From a virus, in the UHGV virus genome UHGV-0019275: 24,941 nt of DNA. One strand, given 5' to 3'. Below are positions 4,968-24,941 of this stretch, in pieces. Numbering within the stretch: the stretch's first letter is position 1; every line of letters begins with the position of its first letter. Under the pieces are notes generated by a model. That model was given only the letters and a program-made list of their open reading frames with translations, did not search any database and was not told the origin of the DNA. A program made the position numbers and the translations under genes.

Positions 4968-5035
4968 AGTGCAAGGATGCCTCTGGTCTGGAGTCGCGCC
5001 AATTCGCGCGGCTCCGGTGGTGGTTCACACAATAT

Positions 5036-5485
5036 TTATTTGCCGAGATGCCTGATAATGACGTCTTCAATCATCTGCTCATCGTCGCGGGTGAAACCGA
5101 GTAACGGGCGCGCCTCGTACTGCACATCCCGGCTGTTGCGGTTTGGTCTGTCTTTGAGCCCGTACTGATGCACCCGCGCCATGCGCTGCACCTTGCCGGT
5201 AAACTCCACCACCGCCGCACTGTCGCTGCCTTTGGCTTTCATAAAGCGACTGGTGCGCAGTTTGGCGAACATTTCACGTTTAATCCGACCTTTCTTGCTC
5301 CTCACCGGCTGGCGCTTTCGTGCCGCATACGGGGTGCCGTCTGGTGCCTGCTGGCGCTTGATACGCTGTTGCTGACTGGTACGCAGCTTTTTCGCAATCT
5401 CAGCCGCCATTTGCCGACGCGCCGCCGGTGACAGGCTGGCAATCAGACCGGCAAGGCGTTCCTGCAGTGCGGTTAACTCACTCAT
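5036..5485 (-). CDS. S: Tail completion / virion morphogenesis protein S
   Basis: 149 aa, MSELTALQERLAGLIASLSPAARRQMAAEIAKKLR, near-identical start to P2 gpS as I remember it. Confidence 0.9.
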   Translation of the reverse strand: MSELTALQERLAGLIASLSPAARRQMAAEIAKKLRTSQQQRIKRQQAPDGTPYAARKRQPVRSKKGRIKREMFAKLRTSRFMKAKGSDSAAVVEFTGKVQRMARVHQYGLKDRPNRNSRDVQYEARPLLGFTRDDEQMIEDVIIRHLGK

Positions 5486-5954
5486 CCCACTTACTCACCA
5501 GTTCGCCGTTAACGTACAGCTCGACCGGGCGCGTCACCGGCTCAGGCAGCGGCGGCTCAGGGGCATAGCTGACATGCAGCGCGCCGTCGACCTCTTTGAC
5601 GAGCGTGCGCTCGGTGAGCCTCAGGCTGATACTGATATCGAGCGAATCGTCGTTATTGATATCAATAATCCAGGTGAATCCTTTTTCCCGCCCGTCGTCG
5701 GTGGTCATAATGTCCGGCTGATGTTCACGCAGCCACGCCTGCACCGGCACGAATATCAAATCAAGGTCACCGGTGAAGTCGGTCACCACCACGTTAAGCA
5801 CGTACACCTTTTCAAACGACAGCGAGCTCGCCAGTCTGGAATCGGTATGGCCGTTGTCGGCAAAAAGGCGCAGCATATCGGGGTTGTTTCGGAGCTGCGG
5901 CACGGCGTTAATCAGCGCTTTGCGCAGGCTTTTGTGCTTCTGCATCGAGTTCAT
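5478..5954 (-). CDS. R: Tail completion protein R
   Basis: 158 aa; P2 gpR-like (NPDMLRLF.DNG...SLSFEK...DIMTTD...ELY.NGELVSKWDE). Confidence 0.9.
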   Translation of the reverse strand: MNSMQKHKSLRKALINAVPQLRNNPDMLRLFADNGHTDSRLASSLSFEKVYVLNVVVTDFTGDLDLIFVPVQAWLREHQPDIMTTDDGREKGFTWIIDINNDDSLDISISLRLTERTLVKEVDGALHVSYAPEPPLPEPVTRPVELYVNGELVSKWDE

Positions 5955-12740: not shown

Positions 12741-13787
12741 ATGGGTAAACAAAAATCCCGTAAAGCCAACGCACAAAAGGCCAGCAAACCACAACAACTG
12801 ACCGCCAGCGCACCGCCAAAAACGACAGCGTTCACCTTCGGCGAGCCGGTGCCGGTACTCGATAAGCGCGACATTCTGGATTACGTCGAATGCATCAGTA
12901 ACGGCAAATGGTACGAGCCGCCGGTCAGCTTCTCAGGGCTGGCAAAGAGCCTGCGCTCTGCCGTGCATCACAGCTCGCCAATTTATGTTAAGCGTAACGT
13001 GCTCGCGAGCACCTACATTCCGCACCCGTTGTTATCCCGTCAGGATTTCAGCCGCTTTGCGCTCGATTATCTGGTGTTCGGTAACGCCTTTCTTGAGCAG
13101 CGCCACAGCGTCACCGGCCAGTTAATCAAACTGCTGGCCTCGCCAGCCAAATACACCCGACGCGGAGTCGACGATTCGATTTTCTGGTTTGTGGAAAACT
13201 TCACCCAGCCGCACGAGTTCGCGCCTGATACCGTGTTTCACCTGCTGGAGCCCGACATTAATCAGGAGATTTACGGTCTGCCGGAATATCTCAGCGCGCT
13301 TAATTCCGCTTGGCTGAATGAATCCGCGACGCTGTTCCGCCGCAAGTATTATCAGAACGGCGCGCACGCAGGCTACATCATGTATGTGACTGACCCGGCG
13401 CAAAGTGCGACCGACGTCGAATCGCTGCGCGAGGCGATGCGTAACTCGAAGGGACTCGGCAACTTTAAGAACCTGTTTTTCTACGCCCCCGGCGGAAAAC
13501 CGGACGGCATCAAAATCGTGCCACTGAGCGAGGTCGCCACAAAGGATGACTTTTTCAACATTAAGAAAGCCAGCGCCGCCGACCTGATGGACGCGCACCG
13601 CGTACCGTTCCAGCTCATGGGCGGCAAGCCCGAGAATATCGGTTCACTCGGTGACGTTGAGAAGGTGGCAAAGGTATTTGTGCGCAATGAGCTGTCGCCG
13701 CTACAGGACAGGTTCAGGGAGGTAAACGACTGGCTCGGCATGGAGGTCATCAGGTTCAAAGAGTACACCCTCGATAATCCGGAATAA
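12741..13787 (+). CDS. Q: Portal protein Q
   Basis: 348 aa; P2 gpQ-like; starts 2 nt after the stop of P. Confidence 0.9.
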   Translation: MGKQKSRKANAQKASKPQQLTASAPPKTTAFTFGEPVPVLDKRDILDYVECISNGKWYEPPVSFSGLAKSLRSAVHHSSPIYVKRNVLASTYIPHPLLSRQDFSRFALDYLVFGNAFLEQRHSVTGQLIKLLASPAKYTRRGVDDSIFWFVENFTQPHEFAPDTVFHLLEPDINQEIYGLPEYLSALNSAWLNESATLFRRKYYQNGAHAGYIMYVTDPAQSATDVESLREAMRNSKGLGNFKNLFFYAPGGKPDGIKIVPLSEVATKDDFFNIKKASAADLMDAHRVPFQLMGGKPENIGSLGDVEKVAKVFVRNELSPLQDRFREVNDWLGMEVIRFKEYTLDNPE

Positions 13788-13817: not shown

Positions 13818-14543
13818 TCAATCGTGAGTGGATATTTGCGAAACAAACTCTTTAACTCCATCTCGTTCAAGTATTTTACTGTCATGGATATACTTTACGA
13901 TATCCCACTCGTAGTATGTACAAGCCATTGCAACTAAAGATATTATTTTTATGTCAGTTAAGTTAACTAATGTTTCATAATAATCTTCCCGTTCAACCCC
14001 GCAATTATCTATCAACTTCACAATCAAATAAAAGCGACGCACCACTGAAAAAATGCAATCATTAGCATCCACTTCACTTAACCACTTTGTTATTACCTCT
14101 TTTTTTACCTTGGCTTTAACTAAAATTACAATATTATCTTCAAGATAAGTTACGGCTGCACCACTTGTAAATTCTTCGACCACCCCGTCAGTTTGTCCAT
14201 CAATATCACCAACTTGAACACAAAACCTTTCAAAGTTAGAATCCTGACATTCAACCAAATGGAAAAATCTCACTTCAAATTTTTTATACTCTTCTAAAGA
14301 TTCTTGCCTTTTTACTTCATCGATCAGGCTGGAATTAGCCTCCCTTTGAAGTTTTATTGAATTTATAAGGAGGTAAATTGTAATAAATGAAAGTATAGGG
14401 TTGACGACACCACCCAAATAATCACCAAACTGCGCCCAAACATCAGTCTTGCTGGATAAATGTCCGTTTACTCCGAAGTTGAAGTAATACAAGGCGCACA
14501 CAGCTACAATCACGCCAGCCGAAGACAGCAACACCTTTCTCAT
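13818..14543 (-). CDS. Cargo protein B: 241-aa protein with two predicted N-terminal TM helices, function unknown (candidate membrane effector)
   Basis: ATG at 14543 overlaps the stop of the upstream gene (ATGA); hydrophobic segments VIVAVCALYYFNF and VVNPILSFITIYLLINSI; AT-rich codon usage unlike the phage backbone; no family recognised. Confidence 0.7.
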   Translation of the reverse strand: MRKVLLSSAGVIVAVCALYYFNFGVNGHLSSKTDVWAQFGDYLGGVVNPILSFITIYLLINSIKLQREANSSLIDEVKRQESLEEYKKFEVRFFHLVECQDSNFERFCVQVGDIDGQTDGVVEEFTSGAAVTYLEDNIVILVKAKVKKEVITKWLSEVDANDCIFSVVRRFYLIVKLIDNCGVEREDYYETLVNLTDIKIISLVAMACTYYEWDIVKYIHDSKILERDGVKEFVSQISTHD

Positions 14544-15358
14544 ACAGTTTCAACCATACGGATTAGATATTTCACCACATCACCACTTTTTACTACAACT
14601 TTGCTAACAGTAAGTTTTAGATATGTGTAGTTATCTTGCCTGCCATTATTATTGTGTAAATTTAATGAGACCAATCTTTTTTGAGCGGCGGGTATAGCCT
14701 TTAAAGGCATGTAAAAACCAAAGGCTACTGTATCATCTTCACCTTCGATAACTAACCTACCATTTCCAGTTCTCGCATTAAATCGAGTAATAACTGCGTT
14801 AATATTAACTTGACCGGGCTTTATTTTTGATTGTGTCAAGTTTGTAGCAGTCATTGTGTCTAACTTTGCTATTCTTTGTTTTCCAGCAGGTTTTTTATAG
14901 TTAAGTTCAACATCAAAGTTTTTTTGAAGATTTATCCTATGCATCCTTACCAAAGGTTGTCTGATACGATCAATAAGTTCATCTTCAATTTCCTCAAGCT
15001 CCTCAATAATTCCTGCAGCTTTTGGAGATAGCTCCTTAGTTTCCAGATATAGAGATTCAGAAATAAAATACCCCATGACTTCCGAGAACACAGAACGGGT
15101 CATTTTTTTTAATTCGGCAGCTAATTCCGGCTCATTAACAATCAAGTCGAAGTTTTGACCATAAGAACTTTTAAAGCTTTGTTTGAGAACCGCTCGCGCA
15201 GGGTTAACATGAGTGCGGCGCTTAATAATTTTTTTTCTGAGTATTGCCTCTGCTAGTATGCATGTCACCTCAGCCGTTCCAGAGAGGGTATCAAGGCCAT
15301 ACTCCATATCAACTTCTTGATCACCACTTTTGATGACAACGTCATAGCTAACTTTCAT
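14540..15358 (-). CDS. Cargo protein A: 272-aa soluble protein, function unknown
   Basis: ORF track starts at GTG 15364, but ATG 15358 has a good SD (AAGGA, 7-nt spacing); no nucleotide-binding or nuclease motif recognised by eye; AT-rich. Confidence 0.7.
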   Translation of the reverse strand: MKVSYDVVIKSGDQEVDMEYGLDTLSGTAEVTCILAEAILRKKIIKRRTHVNPARAVLKQSFKSSYGQNFDLIVNEPELAAELKKMTRSVFSEVMGYFISESLYLETKELSPKAAGIIEELEEIEDELIDRIRQPLVRMHRINLQKNFDVELNYKKPAGKQRIAKLDTMTATNLTQSKIKPGQVNINAVITRFNARTGNGRLVIEGEDDTVAFGFYMPLKAIPAAQKRLVSLNLHNNNGRQDNYTYLKLTVSKVVVKSGDVVKYLIRMVETV

Positions 15359-15466
15359 CGGCACATCCTTGATTTAGTAACCTTTGGTTATTATTTTTCA
15401 TCTTCTACTCATTGACACCGATTTTTTACACCAAAAATATCAAATTGCAAGTGTGTGCTGCGCGCA

Positions 15467-20281: not shown

Positions 20282-20791
20282 TCAAATCAGACCAAACGAT
20301 GCGCCAATACCGCTCATGGTATCGACCACGCTCGACATAGCTGGATTAGTCTGCAGACGTGCATGCAGAGCCAGAGCCGACAATGACAACATGCGAATGC
20401 CGGAGTTAACGCTTTCAATCATGTTATGCTTACGGGCAATGGTCAGACGTTCATCAGATACCGCGCCGCTCGCCAGTTCGCCGAGTTCACGCATTGCGCG
20501 CATGACATAAGACTGCAATTTGTCTTTAGCCAACTCATTAACCGGCACGCATGGTAGGCAGTGAATCTGCGCTAAAAAACCATCAATGAGGGTTGAGTCT
20601 TCGGTCAGGTCAGTCAGCAGCCACAATTCAGACGGCGTGAACTGGTGAGGCTGTTCCGGGTTGAGCTTGTTACGTAACGTTTGAACGTTCATACCTGCAC
20701 GCTTGGCCAGCTTCGCCATATTGTGACGCTGTGCGAAAATGCGGCATGCTTCGTCATAGTGGGGATGTTTGGAAACCTGAAAATCAAACAT
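20282..20791 (-). CDS. cII: Phage CII-like regulatory protein (186 CII / CP76 family)
   Basis: Start set at ATG 20791 (MFDFQVSKHPHYDEACRIFAQRHNMAKLAKRAGMNVQTLRNKLNPEQPH...) with GAGGGA SD, giving 169 aa; second gene of the early lytic operon; matches my memory of 186 CII. Confidence 0.7.
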   Translation of the reverse strand: MFDFQVSKHPHYDEACRIFAQRHNMAKLAKRAGMNVQTLRNKLNPEQPHQFTPSELWLLTDLTEDSTLIDGFLAQIHCLPCVPVNELAKDKLQSYVMRAMRELGELASGAVSDERLTIARKHNMIESVNSGIRMLSLSALALHARLQTNPAMSSVVDTMSGIGASFGLI

Positions 20792-20823
20792 GGTTAAATT
20801 CCCTCTAACTTGCATAATCAAAT

Positions 20824-21195
20824 TCAGTTAAGAGCGGTGCGCTGGTCGATGTAGCGACAATCAATCGCTTGTTGAGTCAGCTTATCGCGCCATGCTTTTA
20901 CGTTTACGAGGGTTCGGCTTCGTTTAGCAGCTTCCTCTTTGTTGGAAAAGTCTTTGGTCGGAGCTTTGAGAAGGACTCCCTCATCGAGCCATTGCCAGAC
21001 CAGACGCTCGCTAACACCGCGAGTAGCGGCGAAGTCTTTCACAGTCATCGTGTCTGACATAGCGGAGCGAATCATTGTCTGTAGAGCTGGCAGCATGGCG
21101 GTAACGATGGCATCAAACTGTGTTGGATCTAGCAGCACAGTTTGATTTTGTGAGTTTTGCGAGTCGTGCGTCGAGATTGATTTTGCATCTGACAT
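20824..21195 (-). CDS. Apl/Cox-like HTH regulator (excisionase / lytic-operon first gene)
   Basis: 123 aa; ATG 21195 with AGGAG SD; HTH-like segment MTVKDFAATRGVSERLVWQWLDEGVL; first gene downstream of the leftward promoter. Confidence 0.6.
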   Translation of the reverse strand: MSDAKSISTHDSQNSQNQTVLLDPTQFDAIVTAMLPALQTMIRSAMSDTMTVKDFAATRGVSERLVWQWLDEGVLLKAPTKDFSNKEEAAKRSRTLVNVKAWRDKLTQQAIDCRYIDQRTALN

Positions 21196-21316: not shown

Positions 21317-22177
21317 ATGAGTTCTGAGCTTGATGTTCAGTGGCGTGTTAGTGCAACGAACGGCGTATTGGAACGCTTAATGTCAGCCTATGGGGTCAAG
21401 ATGCAAAAGGATTTGGCTGACCTGCTAGGTATCGCTAAACACAGCGTTAGCGGCTGGGTTCAGCGTGATGCAATACCTGGCAATGTCATAGTTAGGTGTT
21501 GTCTTGACACGGGAGCTGATATCAATTGGCTTGTAAATGGAGAACTTGCAAATGCAAATCACGAGCGAGCCAGTTGCAAGTTAAAAGGCAAAGAGCTTTA
21601 TGACGAGATTATGACGAATGGTGGTAAAACCGTTTTGCGTAGGATTCTTGATGCGTATGGCTTTACCATGCAAAAGGAGCTCGGTGATTTGCTCGGCATT
21701 TCCTCTGGCACAATTAGCACATGGGTAAGGCGAGATTTTTTCCCTGGTGATGTTGTTGTTACATGCGCTCTTGATACCGATACGTCACTGGAATGGTTAG
21801 CAACAGGCAAGGGGCAAATGCGAGCTAACAGGGAAGATGTCACATCTGGTTTTTCTATTAAAAAATCTCGTCTTGAATCTGGTGAGCTTAAGGATGCAGG
21901 AACGTGGCATCCTGACCCCTCAATGATTCCTTCTAACTCAGGGGAATTGATTTTTGTTGACGGTGTAGCTGCCTCTTGGCTTGTCGACTGTTCTGCTTCG
22001 AATATAAGTAATGGTCGCTGGTTAATTGATATCGACGGCGCTCTTGATGTTTTTGATGTAATTCGCTTGCCCGGTGGAAAAGTCAGGTTGTCAAATAAGT
22101 CTGCTGAGTTTGAATGCAACATTACAGACATTACTCCTGCCGGGGCTGTAGTTTTCACATTGGAAAAACACGTGTAA
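21317..22177 (+). CDS. cI: Immunity repressor, 186 CI-like, with tandemly duplicated N-terminal HTH domain
   Basis: 286 aa; residues about 16-75 and 105-165 are internal repeats (AYG..MQK.L.DLLGI.....S.WV.RD..PG.V.V.C.LDT.....WL..G), each resembling the 186 CI DNA-binding domain; upstream of int on the same strand. Confidence 0.8.
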   Translation: MSSELDVQWRVSATNGVLERLMSAYGVKMQKDLADLLGIAKHSVSGWVQRDAIPGNVIVRCCLDTGADINWLVNGELANANHERASCKLKGKELYDEIMTNGGKTVLRRILDAYGFTMQKELGDLLGISSGTISTWVRRDFFPGDVVVTCALDTDTSLEWLATGKGQMRANREDVTSGFSIKKSRLESGELKDAGTWHPDPSMIPSNSGELIFVDGVAASWLVDCSASNISNGRWLIDIDGALDVFDVIRLPGGKVRLSNKSAEFECNITDITPAGAVVFTLEKHV

Positions 22178-22185
22178 GGGACATT

Positions 22186-22514
22186 ATGAAATGTAAACTC
22201 TTTTTAGCTCTGCTTCTTACCCTTTCTTTTGGAGCCTCAGCCGCTGAAAAAACACAGGATTTAGATGGCGCTAAGTTTGGTGAGGATTGGCCGTTAACTT
22301 TTGAAAAAGCTACGGTGTCTTGTGTCAACGGTAAATATGCCTTTGTGTACGACAAAGCAACAGATGACCAAATGGTTTTGCGATTGATGGAGTAAAGTCT
22401 GGAAAGCTTGAGGGGAGCAATATTGATACTGTTTGGAAAGATAGCCCGGAGTATGCAGGCGTAAAAATTCCTTTGGATCCTGTAATGGATGCTGCAACAG
22501 CACTTTGGGAATAA
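22186..22514 (+). pseudogene. Small secreted protein gene (DUF2511/YebY-like?) interrupted by a frameshift
   Basis: ATG 22186 with AAGGG SD and signal-peptide-like N-terminus MKCKLFLALLLTLSFGASA; frame 1 stops at 22393-22395, but frame 3 continues as PNGFAIDGVKSGKLEGSNIDTVWKDSPEYAGVKIPLDPVMDAATALWE to 22514; a 1-nt indel near 22366-22370 would join them. Confidence 0.5.
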
Positions 22515-22536
22515 TTAGAGTTGCCTCGGTGACATT

Positions 22537-23577
22537 ATGACTGTAAGTAAGCAAAAAAATGGCAAATGGTTATGCGAGCTCTATCCAAATGGTCGAGAAG
22601 GGCGGCGTATACGTCGGCAATTCAATACCAAAGGTGAGGCCGAGGCATTCGAAGCATTTACGAAAAGTGAGAGTGAGGATAAGCCGTGGCTCGGCAAGAA
22701 AGAAGACCGCCGACGCTTAAGTGAGATTATCCAGCTTTGGCATAATTTACACGGACAGGCACTGGTCGCCAGTAAGTCGCGGTTAGCTAAACTTCAAATC
22801 GTGTGTAATGGACTTGGTGACCCTATTGCATCCCGCCTTACTGCTAAAGATTGGGCTCATTACCGTGACCGCCGACTTCGGGGGGAGATAGATAATGGCT
22901 ATCATAAAGACCCGGCAAAATGGATTGCTAAACCGATAACTGTCAATCGTGAGCAACAATATCTTGAGGCTGTATTTAATGAGCTCAAAAGGCTAGGGGA
23001 GTGGAGCTTACCAAATCCACTTGATGGAGTCCGTGTTTTCAAGGAAGCCGAGAAAGAAATGTCTTGGCTCACTTTGTCTCAAATTCCGAAATTGTTTCAG
23101 GCATGCGAGCAATACGGAAAAGAAGACCTCACCATGATTGTTAAGATTTGTCTTGCAACAGGTGCTAGATGGGGTGAGGCTGAGAGGTTGACACGTCCCC
23201 AGCTCTCGCCACATAAACTGACCTTCACCAAAACGAAAGGGAAAAAGAATCGAACCGTTCCGATCCCAAAATGGTTGTATGACGAATTATCTGAAAGGCA
23301 GGGAAAGATGTTTAAGCCTTGCTATCAGGAGTTTAAAAAGATGCTCAAACTAACGGATATCGAACTGACGGAAGGGCAAAAGACACACGTTCTGCGTCAT
23401 ACCTTCGGCGCTCATTTTATGATGAATGGCGGGAATATTCTTGTGCTGCAACGTATACTCGGTCATGCGAATATTCGTGAAACTATGAAGTATGCACATT
23501 TCTCCCCGGATCATCTTGAGGAGGCTGTAACATTTAATCCTTTAACATTATGTAATGGTTTTAAATGGAAAGATTAA
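22537..23577 (+). CDS. int: Tyrosine integrase (P2 Int family)
   Basis: 346 aa; C-terminal catalytic motifs HVLRHTFGAHF and GHANIRETMKYAHF; downstream of the repressor as in P2/186. Confidence 0.9.
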   Translation: MTVSKQKNGKWLCELYPNGREGRRIRRQFNTKGEAEAFEAFTKSESEDKPWLGKKEDRRRLSEIIQLWHNLHGQALVASKSRLAKLQIVCNGLGDPIASRLTAKDWAHYRDRRLRGEIDNGYHKDPAKWIAKPITVNREQQYLEAVFNELKRLGEWSLPNPLDGVRVFKEAEKEMSWLTLSQIPKLFQACEQYGKEDLTMIVKICLATGARWGEAERLTRPQLSPHKLTFTKTKGKKNRTVPIPKWLYDELSERQGKMFKPCYQEFKKMLKLTDIELTEGQKTHVLRHTFGAHFMMNGGNILVLQRILGHANIRETMKYAHFSPDHLEEAVTFNPLTLCNGFKWKD

Positions 23578-23645
23578 TTATGCGTATATTGTTAGTTTAT
23601 TTTAACGCTGTTGGATTTAAATTTAATAACGGCTGCGTCTATTGT

Positions 23646-23692
23646 AAACCATAAAGACCACCTATGGCCGTCTTTATGGTTTGTGTTTTTTT
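23646..23692 (+). terminator. Rho-independent terminator downstream of int
   Basis: 13-bp inverted repeat AAACCATAAAGAC / GTCTTTATGGTTT with 11-nt loop, followed by a 7-T run (23686-23692). Confidence 0.55.
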
Positions 23693-23693
23693 G

Positions 23694-24464
23694 TTATGAT
23701 GGTAATTCTATTTCATCATGATCATCAACTTTTTCAAAGTCACCGGCTTTAATTGGGACAGGTTTAAGTTCAATTTCACCGAAACCCATTGGGAAAAGAC
23801 TATGAGTAGTGTCTTGTTTGCAAAAATAAGATACCAAATCAAATCCACAGGAAACTTTTTTTATAAAGTCATCTGATAGTAAAATGCATAAAAAAGATGA
23901 GTCTTCTTTTGTTTCTGTGTTTTTCTTTGTTGTCTTGGGGTGAATTATGTCATTTCTAAGTGACTCAAGGCTTTTAAAATCTTGCCATAGTTTTGAACCT
24001 TTAGGTGAATCACAATTTAAAATAGACGGTAGGATTTTATCTATTTTTTCACTTGTTGGTATATATCGCTCAATTAGCTCTTTGCTATAGGATTCTTTGA
24101 TTCCCTTGGCATTGTTTTTTTCATAAACATAATCATGTGGTATGCATATATTTGCAAAAGACTCAATTGCAGTATACATAGAAATAATGGCCGTCTGAAT
24201 TGATTCAAAGTAATTATAGAGTCTCGGCAGGTCTTTGTCGGAAATTTTAAAGTTTTTATGTTTGGTTTTGTGTATTTTTCCAAAAAGACTTTTATATATA
24301 GAATTGGATTTTGAGAGCTCTTTTTTTGCTGAGGATAAGAATATAGAAACGTTATTTGGGGTGAAAAAACTAACTGTCGCACCAGATAATGTGGCTTTAT
24401 CTGACATTTGCAATGTCAAATTTAAATTTTCTTCTTCTATTCTTGCTATGATTGGTCTCTGCAT
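23694..24464 (-). CDS. Hypothetical protein in AT-rich flank beyond int (start uncertain; ORF-track start 24539 is TTG)
   Basis: Long AT-rich ORF; first ATG at 24464 lacks a good SD; contains RNDIIH (an Rx4H, HEPN-like motif); no family recognised. Confidence 0.4.
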   Translation of the reverse strand: MQRPIIARIEEENLNLTLQMSDKATLSGATVSFFTPNNVSIFLSSAKKELSKSNSIYKSLFGKIHKTKHKNFKISDKDLPRLYNYFESIQTAIISMYTAIESFANICIPHDYVYEKNNAKGIKESYSKELIERYIPTSEKIDKILPSILNCDSPKGSKLWQDFKSLESLRNDIIHPKTTKKNTETKEDSSFLCILLSDDFIKKVSCGFDLVSYFCKQDTTHSLFPMGFGEIELKPVPIKAGDFEKVDDHDEIELPS

Positions 24465-24910
24465 CCTGATATCGATAATCTGGATTGTATCCTTTTTTGA
24501 CACGTTCTTCTCCGTGGATGTTTTGTGGTTAAAAAACAATGCTAATTTTAGGATGTTGGGTTTTTAAAAACTGACAACTACTTGGTAATACCTGATTCGT
24601 GCAAAAATAATTTTGAAGCTAATAATTACATTATATCAGGTAAAAATCATATAATGCGTATCAATATTACAACATATACGGAAATTTTCCAACTACCTCA
24701 TGTGTTAGCGTTTCACTCGGGTATACTAAAGTCTGTGTGGTATAAAGCTTTAAGTGGCGGCAAAGTGGCGGCGGAGGTTGCAGAATATTGCAATTCACTG
24801 CATTAAAAATTAAATTAACTAATTGTTTTTATTATAATTATATGTTTTTTATGTGGTTTTATTGGGAGCGTCTTAACTAAGATTTCGCTTAAGCGACATC
24901 CTGTTAAGAA

Positions 24911-24939
24911 GGGCTGGCCAATTGGCTGGCCCTTTTTTT
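24911..24939 (+). terminator. Rho-independent terminator-like hairpin at the right window edge
   Basis: GGGCUGGCC-aauu-GGCUGGCCC (9-bp stem with two G-U pairs) followed by UUUUUUU. Confidence 0.4.
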
Positions 24940-24941
24940 AT

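Follow-up and report, generated by a model that had tools for sequence, protein, structure and literature searches.

What is the AT-rich DNA that follows the integrase gene of the virus genome UHGV-0019275, and what does the single long gene that it carries do? The stretch analysed here, referred to as the window (24,941 nucleotides, nt; one strand), covers the regulatory and integration end of a 186/P2-like Escherichia coli prophage, and its last part, positions 23578-24941, lies beyond the integrase gene (int) and contains a long open reading frame (ORF) on the minus strand. We report that this ORF is a cargo gene carried by the prophage itself, between int and the attachment site (att), and we propose that it encodes a solitary RNase of the HEPN superfamily that may act against infection by other phages.

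Prophage end and attachment site

The preliminary description of the window, made from the letters and ORF translations, had pointed to an AT-rich flank past int. The G+C content does fall there, from 0.45 in int to 0.31-0.33, with 31-32% across 23560-24865 (0.326 and 0.312 within 23501-24500) compared with 0.506 for the whole window. Positions 23578-24941 were subjected to a megablast search against 5426 complete E. coli genomes. The universal match was limited to 24866-24941, which was found in 5426 of the 5426 genomes, and the full 1364 nt were present in 19 of them, always at the same site and with an identity of at least 99.9%. In prophage-free strains, 24866-24941 overlaps the rplS 3' end and the spacer towards yfiB, a gene that sits just past the end of the window. 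For the carrier strain ECE313 the other prophage end was located ~32 kb away, adjoining an intact rplS-trmD-rimM-rpsP operon. A three-way alignment of the empty site in strain HST04 (attB), the rplS-side junction (attL) and the window junction (attR) defined the following features.

24866-24878, plus strand: att core GAGCGTCTTAACT, the last rplS (L19) codons E-R-L-N, common to HST04 attB, attL and attR
24879-24941, plus strand: host chromosome; the TAA stop of the original rplS is at 24878-24880, and the hairpin of the rplS terminator at 24911-24932, with a T-run after it

The att target is the 3' end of a protein-coding ribosomal gene, rplS, and not a tRNA gene. That no tRNA-like att target had been seen earlier is thereby accounted for: ARAGORN predicted neither tRNA nor tmRNA genes in the whole window, and the core consists of the last rplS codons instead of lying inside a tRNA or tmRNA gene. 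An Rfam scan of 22000-24941 gave chance-level matches only, none of them near threshold. On the attL side the TGA stop and a separate terminator hairpin come from the phage; the original TAA and the rplS terminator remain on the window side. The corresponding sequence at the other end in ECE313 (L002 7900-7990, reverse strand) has phage-supplied ERLN codons, TGA in place of TAA, and the hairpin GGGGTTAGCGAATTGCTAACCCC followed by a T-run. The phage thus rebuilds the end of rplS (ERLN codons, stop and terminator), and L19 is therefore intact in the lysogen.

As the core chromosome begins at 24866 and the att core is 24866-24878, phage DNA extends to 24865, which puts the ORF within the prophage and the cargo gene between int and att. 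Of the origins first considered for the ORF, att-adjacent cargo as opposed to core chromosome is the one supported by the attL, attR and attB comparison together with the 5426 genomes; the comparison with an uninfected strain that had been suggested located attB (HST04) and placed the ORF within the prophage. The treatment of 23578-24941 as a non-core flank holds up to 24865 and fails for 24866-24941, which is universal E. coli chromosome. The annotation of the window is hereby settled, with the prophage end at 24865/24878, within rplS.

A cargo block inserted at the 3' end of int

The DNA between int and the att core can be divided as follows.

22537-23577, plus strand: tyrosine integrase gene int (Pfam Int_N and Phage_integrase)
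23560-24757: inserted 1.2-kb cargo block (moron), made up of the new int tail, the terminator hairpin shared with int, and the HEPN gene with its upstream region; G+C 0.316, compared with 0.45 for int
24752-24772, plus strand: two direct repeats AAGTGGCGGC with 11-nt spacing, putative arm-type Int sites of the phage attachment site (attP), overlapping the int fossil
24755-24785, plus strand: fossil of the ancestral int 3' end, TGGCGGCAAAGTGGCGGCGGAGGTTGCAGAA, 1.2 kb downstream of int, with the VAAEVA residues of the old Int tail
24773-24865: rest of the int-proximal attP arm, G+C 0.31, ~90% identical to the cargo-free relative

As cargo-free comparator we used a related prophage (L003) located at rplS in E. 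coli strain Res13-Sevr-PER07-33. Its Int is 94% identical to the window Int over 341 amino acids (aa), and the tails diverge after residue 341. The int frame of L003 continues directly into the att region and the arm-type sites, with the stop codon inside TGGCGACAATGTGGCGGCAGAGGTTGCATAA, and the window Int has a new tail (...NGFKWKD), the last ~5 codons of which (23560-23577) derive from the inserted block. The ancestral end can still be read beyond the gene, at 24755-24806 on the plus strand, where a 74-aa plus-strand ORF (24582-24806) ends in ...GGKVAAEVAEYCNSLH, compared with ...VGDNVAAEVA* at the end of the L003 Int. This ORF was rejected as a gene given its TTG start, the lack of a PHROG match and a C-terminus made of the int fossil. 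Since the near-identical Int of L003 abuts att and the int fossil is found beyond the gene, 23560-24757 represents an insertion at the extreme 3' end of int.

The direct repeats AAGTGGCGGC were left intact by the block and resemble an GGTGGCGGCAAATTGGCGGC element on the other arm, where a similar GGTGGCGGCAAATTGGCGGCAGAGGTTGG lies next to attL. Following the organisation of P2-type attP, we infer that these repeats are arm-type Int binding sites. The repeat is present in three copies in the corresponding locus of a Klebsiella variicola 186-like prophage. This prophage is inserted in the yfiB-side neighbourhood and has the same order of int, gene and arm repeats, with an Int that is 93% identical and has the new ...FK tail, and a cargo protein with 88% aa identity. 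The same slot and the new Int tail in K. variicola argue that the insertion is old and has been transmitted with functional phages. Among the E. coli genomes, 49 matched the att-proximal arm (24755-24941) at 80-90% identity only, L003 being the one that was examined. Situated inside the element between int and att, and present or absent among close relatives (in 19 of the 5426 genomes; missing from L003), the block qualifies as a moron. We consider the locus a well-resolved case of cargo entry into a temperate phage, where the fossil of the old int end, the new int tail, and the intact arm sites and core can all be recognised.

The cargo gene and its expression signals

The long minus-strand ORF noted earlier is confirmed; it spans 23694-24539 at its maximal length of 281 aa and encodes 269 aa from the best start. 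The gene and its signals are listed below.

23694-24503, minus strand: cargo gene for a 269-aa protein, GTG start at 24503-24501; same call as RefSeq WP_001394629.1
24510-24513, minus strand: Shine-Dalgarno sequence GGAG, 6-nt spacer to the GTG at 24503
24664-24692, minus strand: candidate promoter TTGGAA-17 nt-TAATAT, as read from the sequence
24630-24638, minus strand: second candidate promoter, extended -10 TGaTATAAT, from the same kind of reading
23646-23682: 13-bp perfect inverted repeat, terminator hairpin between the convergent int and HEPN genes, T-run on the plus strand

The chance of 269-281 stop-free codons at this composition is ~2-5e-10, and the pairwise ratio of nonsynonymous to synonymous substitution rates (dN/dS) is 0.03-0.08 among four orthologues. 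The cargo gene is real and under strong purifying selection. The preliminary description had found no convincing Shine-Dalgarno sequence. For the real start this is wrong, since the GGAG located 6 nt before the GTG at 24503 is conserved in four loci: both GGAG and the start are kept in E. coli, Klebsiella, Serratia and Morganella, with conservation beginning at the GGAG and with ATG as the Morganella start. The first promoter candidate reads TTGGCA-17-TAATAT in Klebsiella and has a recognisable form in Morganella. The predicted transcription start would be near 24657 or 24623. The 23646-23682 hairpin folds as RNA at -18 kcal/mol (z -2.35), and Klebsiella has a hairpin in the same place with a different stem sequence. 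To judge from these elements the block is self-contained, with a predicted promoter, a GTG gene preceded by GGAG, and a hairpin terminator shared with int.

A HEPN-type domain in the C-terminal half

The 269-aa protein is composed of an N-terminal beta/alpha domain (~11-75) and a C-terminal HEPN-type domain (~89-235). An AlphaFold2 model was generated from 27 sequences, with a predicted local distance difference test score (pLDDT) of 81.6. Four short strands (18-47) and a helix (51-74) form the N-terminal part of the model; the helical domain comprises helices 89-120, 141-162, 171-187 and 203-230, with a beta-hairpin (127-139) following the first of these and a loop preceding the last.

The sequence SLRNDIIHPKT is present and provides the single Rx4H motif of the protein, R183-N-D-I-I-H188 (269-aa numbering). 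The caution with which this motif was first put forward, as weak evidence on its own, was justified: for a protein of this composition ~0.13 Rx4H and ~0.39 Rx4-6H motifs are expected by chance. It gains weight because R183 and H188 are conserved in 91 relatives with identities as low as 25%. All of these relatives have R183 and N118, and H188, K153, W173 and the acidic residues E114 (helix 89-120) and E145 (helix 141-147) are each found in at least 90% of them; N184 is invariant among 27 closer relatives. In the model, RNDIIH (183-188) is located at the C-terminal end of helix 171-187 and is followed by a low-confidence loop, in agreement with the position at a helix end or loop start that is expected for Rx4-6H in the HEPN superfamily (PMC3710099). 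The modelled core is a four-helix up-and-down bundle resembling solved HEPN domains, and its best structural matches are the HEPN toxins of HEPN-MNT pairs (5yep_B, 7ae2_A and 8xdj_A).

Profile matches below threshold point in the same direction. Among the 91 members they were to the Pfam models HEPN_RiboL-PSP (13), HEPN_Cthe2314 (13), DUF3644 (10), HEPN_Apea (3) and HEPN_AbiV (1), and to the PADLOC models RTasHEPN (23) and CARF_HEPN (8). The recurrent ones were exclusively to HEPN models, DUF3644 being a HEPN family as well (PMC3710099). For the window protein itself Pfam gave no family even at E ≤ 1, NCBIfam gave none, and PADLOC v2 recognised no system. Taken together, the C-terminal half very probably represents a HEPN-superfamily domain. 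The HEPN assignment of the preliminary description thus stands at the level of superfamily and fold (motif conservation, sub-threshold matches and fold) and falls for any named HEPN/Abi family; membership in HEPN_RiboL-PSP, HEPN_Cthe2314, HEPN_Apea, HEPN_AbiV, Abi_2 and DUF3644 was rejected, as the gathering thresholds were not reached. The conserved N-terminal region (D11, R13, P17 and P49-N50) had no detectable relatives.

The protein matches PHROG 17113 (function unknown) over its full length (E 1.1e-180), and an exhaustive profile search returned 1110 cluster representatives at E ≤ 1e-3, with relatives in Proteobacteria, Bacteroidota, Ignavibacteria, Paenibacillus, Planctomycetota and others. 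Some homologues have a precomputed weak match to Pfam PF27216 'YopA_C'. A literature search for YopA_C/PF27216, WP_001394629.1, PHROG 17113 and the motif strings retrieved nothing. Eight members of the family (P0032, P0038, P0042, P0096, P0109, P0111, P0120 and P0139) have an extra N-terminal extension of 135-200 aa, in which no Pfam domain was detected and which may be an alternative sensor domain.

Genomic contexts of relatives

Clustering of the neighbouring genes in 27 loci showed that the sole family common to all is the gene itself, and among the relatives the gene is always solitary. Searches with tblastn gave no match in 50,697 INPHARED phage records and two distant matches only among plasmids.

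The Serratia orthologue (83% identity) is part of a P4-like satellite, between an Ogr_Delta gene and int; the counterpart of this slot in P4, from int to the psu-delta-sid operon, is the main defence hotspot there (PMC9122126, Rousset et al. 2022; PMC13586616, NAR 2026). The int-att interval of P2-like phages is reported to be a minor defence hotspot with 3% of their systems, and six of eight randomly chosen unknown loci of the P4 hotspot were protective against phages (PMC13586616). The Morganella orthologue is found in an islet adjoining icd, which also holds an integrase fragment and a gene pair with a RelA_SpoT domain. The pair, a 118-aa gene and a 259-aa RelA_SpoT-domain gene beside the orthologue in Morganella morganii (L007/L008 7468-8605), is possibly a toxic small-alarmone-synthetase pair; PADLOC v2 did not recognise the RelA_SpoT protein. 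In one M. morganii strain the islet is directly bordered by the tail module of a prophage.

The homologues in Simplicispira and in a Saprospiraceae metagenome-assembled genome (MAG) are located in islands with integrases or insertion sequence elements. One metagenome contig (L018 1-10801) carries attC-like repeats (CCTAACTACGCAATCAAGGGGACC...GGTCCCTTATTTTGGTTGTTAGG), at least 15 in number, and represents a chromosomal integron array that includes VapBC and helix-turn-helix antitoxin cassettes; its HEPN homologue is a one-gene cassette at 5001-5801, bounded by attC repeats. In Acinetobacter the homologue stands alone on an 8-kb mobilizable plasmid, with a YafO toxin adjoining. Several other homologues are inserted singly among housekeeping genes, and two of these have a QatC-like or an Argonaute-associated-nuclease-like gene as neighbour. 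The former, in a Bacteroidota MAG (L025 6921-8798), encodes a QatC-like protein fused to a DpnII/MboI-type restriction endonuclease domain; the latter, in a Porticoccaceae MAG (L030 4558-5361), encodes a protein resembling a pPIWI/Argonaute-associated nuclease. The homologues beside these two genes are distant ones.

Proposed function and alternative explanations

HEPN enzymes such as Csm6/Csx1, Cas13, RnlA/LsoA, PrrC and HepT provide the model for what the cargo protein might do. From the invariant Arg and near-invariant His, the solitary gene, and its recurrence in defence hotspots of mobile elements we infer a defence RNase, and we suggest, with a probability of roughly 0.6, a stand-alone latent RNase that acts in abortive infection or superinfection exclusion. 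The lysogen would produce the HEPN protein as an RNase that is latent and restrains itself. Two copies would come together, as known from other HEPN enzymes, and combine their R...H motifs into a single composite active site. Sensing, or the gating of activation, would fall to the conserved N-terminal domain. Once another phage or a satellite infects the cell, RNA (tRNA, rRNA or mRNA) would be cut by the enzyme, translation would stop and the infection would be aborted, the protein acting alone with neither antitoxin nor partner gene.

More tentatively, and at slightly less than even odds, the protein could be the first representative of a new abortive-infection system that consists of one gene. 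A solitary HEPN RNase would then have its conserved N-terminal beta/alpha domain in place of an antitoxin, as sensor and brake, and the gene, a cassette by itself, would move across many phyla among chromosomal integrons, small plasmids, the hotspot of P4 satellites and the int-att slot of P2/186-like phages. Were the protein an active, partner-less anti-phage HEPN RNase, a compact 0.8-kb defence gene would be added to the catalogue, and it would offer a clean case in which to ask what restrains, and what triggers, a toxic RNase that has no partner.

Several observations weigh against a latent defence RNase. No Pfam or NCBIfam HEPN model reached threshold, the relatives scoring 13-20 bits with cut-offs of 27-28. 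Foldseek gave no significant match in PDB and BFVD, and sequence profiles found no solved relative among PDB sequences. How a solitary RNase would be restrained in a harmless state is unexplained. Neither promoter candidate passed the criteria of a consensus promoter scan, and both are predictions only. Finally, housekeeping genes are the immediate neighbours in five of the nine distant loci examined and a tyrosine recombinase lies within 6 kb in only ~6 of the 27 loci; association with defence islands is therefore not general.

The cargo protein might instead be an RNA enzyme that serves the phage or the satellite and has no part in host defence, either by processing or degrading host or rival transcripts during lytic growth or as a weapon or counter-weapon between P2/186 helpers and P4 satellites. 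Close orthologues do occur in a 186-like phage of the helper type and also in a P4-like satellite, and RNA-processing roles are also known for HEPN domains (PMC3710099). The gene is, however, dispensable for the phage lineage, because the related prophage L003 occupies rplS without it, and 49 genomes have the 80-90% identical arm. Moreover, it faces int in convergent orientation, belongs to no phage operon, and is also found on non-phage elements and between housekeeping genes. We regard this explanation as having an outside chance.

A slightly smaller chance is given to an addiction or stabilisation toxin, that is, the HEPN toxin of a toxin-antitoxin (TA) pair whose role is to keep the element, with the antitoxin (a small protein or an RNA) encoded in the 250-nt upstream region or antisense. 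The structural likeness to the HEPN toxins of HEPN-MNT pairs (5yep_B, 7ae2_A and 8xdj_A) speaks for such a toxin, as do the TA-rich elements on which the gene occurs (the integron array with VapBC and the small plasmid by the YafO toxin) and the ~250 nt of upstream DNA that travel with the gene. Yet no neighbouring ORF is conserved in the 27 loci, and no MNT-type gene adjoins any homologue; in the gene lists no NTP_transf_2-type gene adjoined a homologue, the one in locus L011 lying 6 kb off across unrelated genes. The 250-nt upstream region contains no credible small ORF, no tandem repeat of ToxI type or otherwise, and no stable RNA structure. The small ORFs in 24504-24870 have GTG or TTG starts and share sequence with the arm sites or the int fossil, and the upstream RNA folds no better than shuffled sequences (z -0.54). 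The integron cassette, furthermore, contains the HEPN gene only.

It is improbable that the protein is a catalytically inert HEPN-like helical protein, such as a nucleotide- or protein-binding adaptor or a bundle that merely resembles HEPN; the scores below threshold and the lack of a solved relative stand here beside R183, invariant in 91 relatives, and the near-invariant H188. The preliminary description's second, separate island, or ordinary chromosome outside the prophage, which the abrupt G+C drop past int and the terminator between int and the ORF might have suggested, is refuted and keeps practically no probability, as the arm-type repeats, the int fossil and the att core are all found on the far side of the gene, the chromosome begins at 24866 in every genome, and the order int, gene, att is kept in Klebsiella.

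Other features of the window

The remaining features that we annotated belong to the regulatory region, apart from the portal gene.

12741-13787, plus strand: portal gene
20282-20821, minus strand: CII
20824-21195, minus strand: gene in the Apl position
21317-22177, plus strand: CI repressor, 186-type
22114-22514, plus strand: small DUF2511/YebY-like gene, flanked by cI and int; its ORF in the window has a match to PHROG 2950

The DUF2511/YebY-like gene is annotated as frameshifted in the window prophage and is intact (112 aa) in E. coli L003 and in Klebsiella. A second AT-rich stretch (13818-15364, minus strand; G+C 0.37), just past the portal gene, carries two overlapping ORFs of 241 and 274 aa, for which neither Pfam nor PADLOC gave a match. 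The stretch occupies the classic P2 gpQ/gpA defence hotspot, and the ORF pair is a candidate two-gene system.

Comparison with known systems

The nearest structural counterparts of the cargo protein are the toxins of HEPN-MNT (HepT-MntA) systems, type II/VII, exemplified by Shewanella SO_3166 (PDB 5yep) and the Aphanizomenon HEPN protein (7ae2, 8xdj). These toxins are single-domain proteins of ~130 aa encoded beside an MNT antitoxin that AMPylates the toxin, whereas the cargo gene has no MNT neighbour in 27 loci, and its product has an additional N-terminal domain of ~75 residues, a beta-hairpin insert (127-139) and only 7-13% identity to them. The stand-alone "conflict" HEPN families (Anantharaman et al. 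2013) include RiboL-PSP HEPN, Cthe_2314, ApeA, DUF3644/EC042_2821, AbiV and the integron-cassette HEPN 3jrt; all matches to these families were below the gathering thresholds (13-20 compared with 27-28 bits). None of the described N-terminal domains associated with HEPN corresponds to that of the cargo protein, which forms its own family, PHROG 17113. Compared with the reverse transcriptase-associated HEPN domains of UG/Abi systems (the C-terminal HEPN of AbiA; PADLOC RTasHEPN) the match is weak and partial, and there is no reverse transcriptase in the cargo protein or nearby.

Among the systems that PMC9122126 and PMC13586616 name or test in their text and supplements, the protein was not found. 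The "putative HEPN" tested by Rousset et al. (pFR103) was considered as the same protein and rejected, as it is a different one. In its genomic setting the block is nevertheless like the cargo of P2- and P4-like hotspots (PMC9122126, PMC13586616), being a variable, AT-rich and self-contained cassette in the int-att slot of a P2-like element, with an orthologue in the P4 hotspot. As for the signals of its own that are typical of a moron, the terminator hairpin and the G+C content of 0.316 are clear, and the promoter is a sequence reading, conserved in three loci and unlisted by the scan. HEPN genes in prophage and satellite hotspots are of an already known kind, as is the int-att hotspot; the family itself is uncharacterised and has not been named as a defence system.

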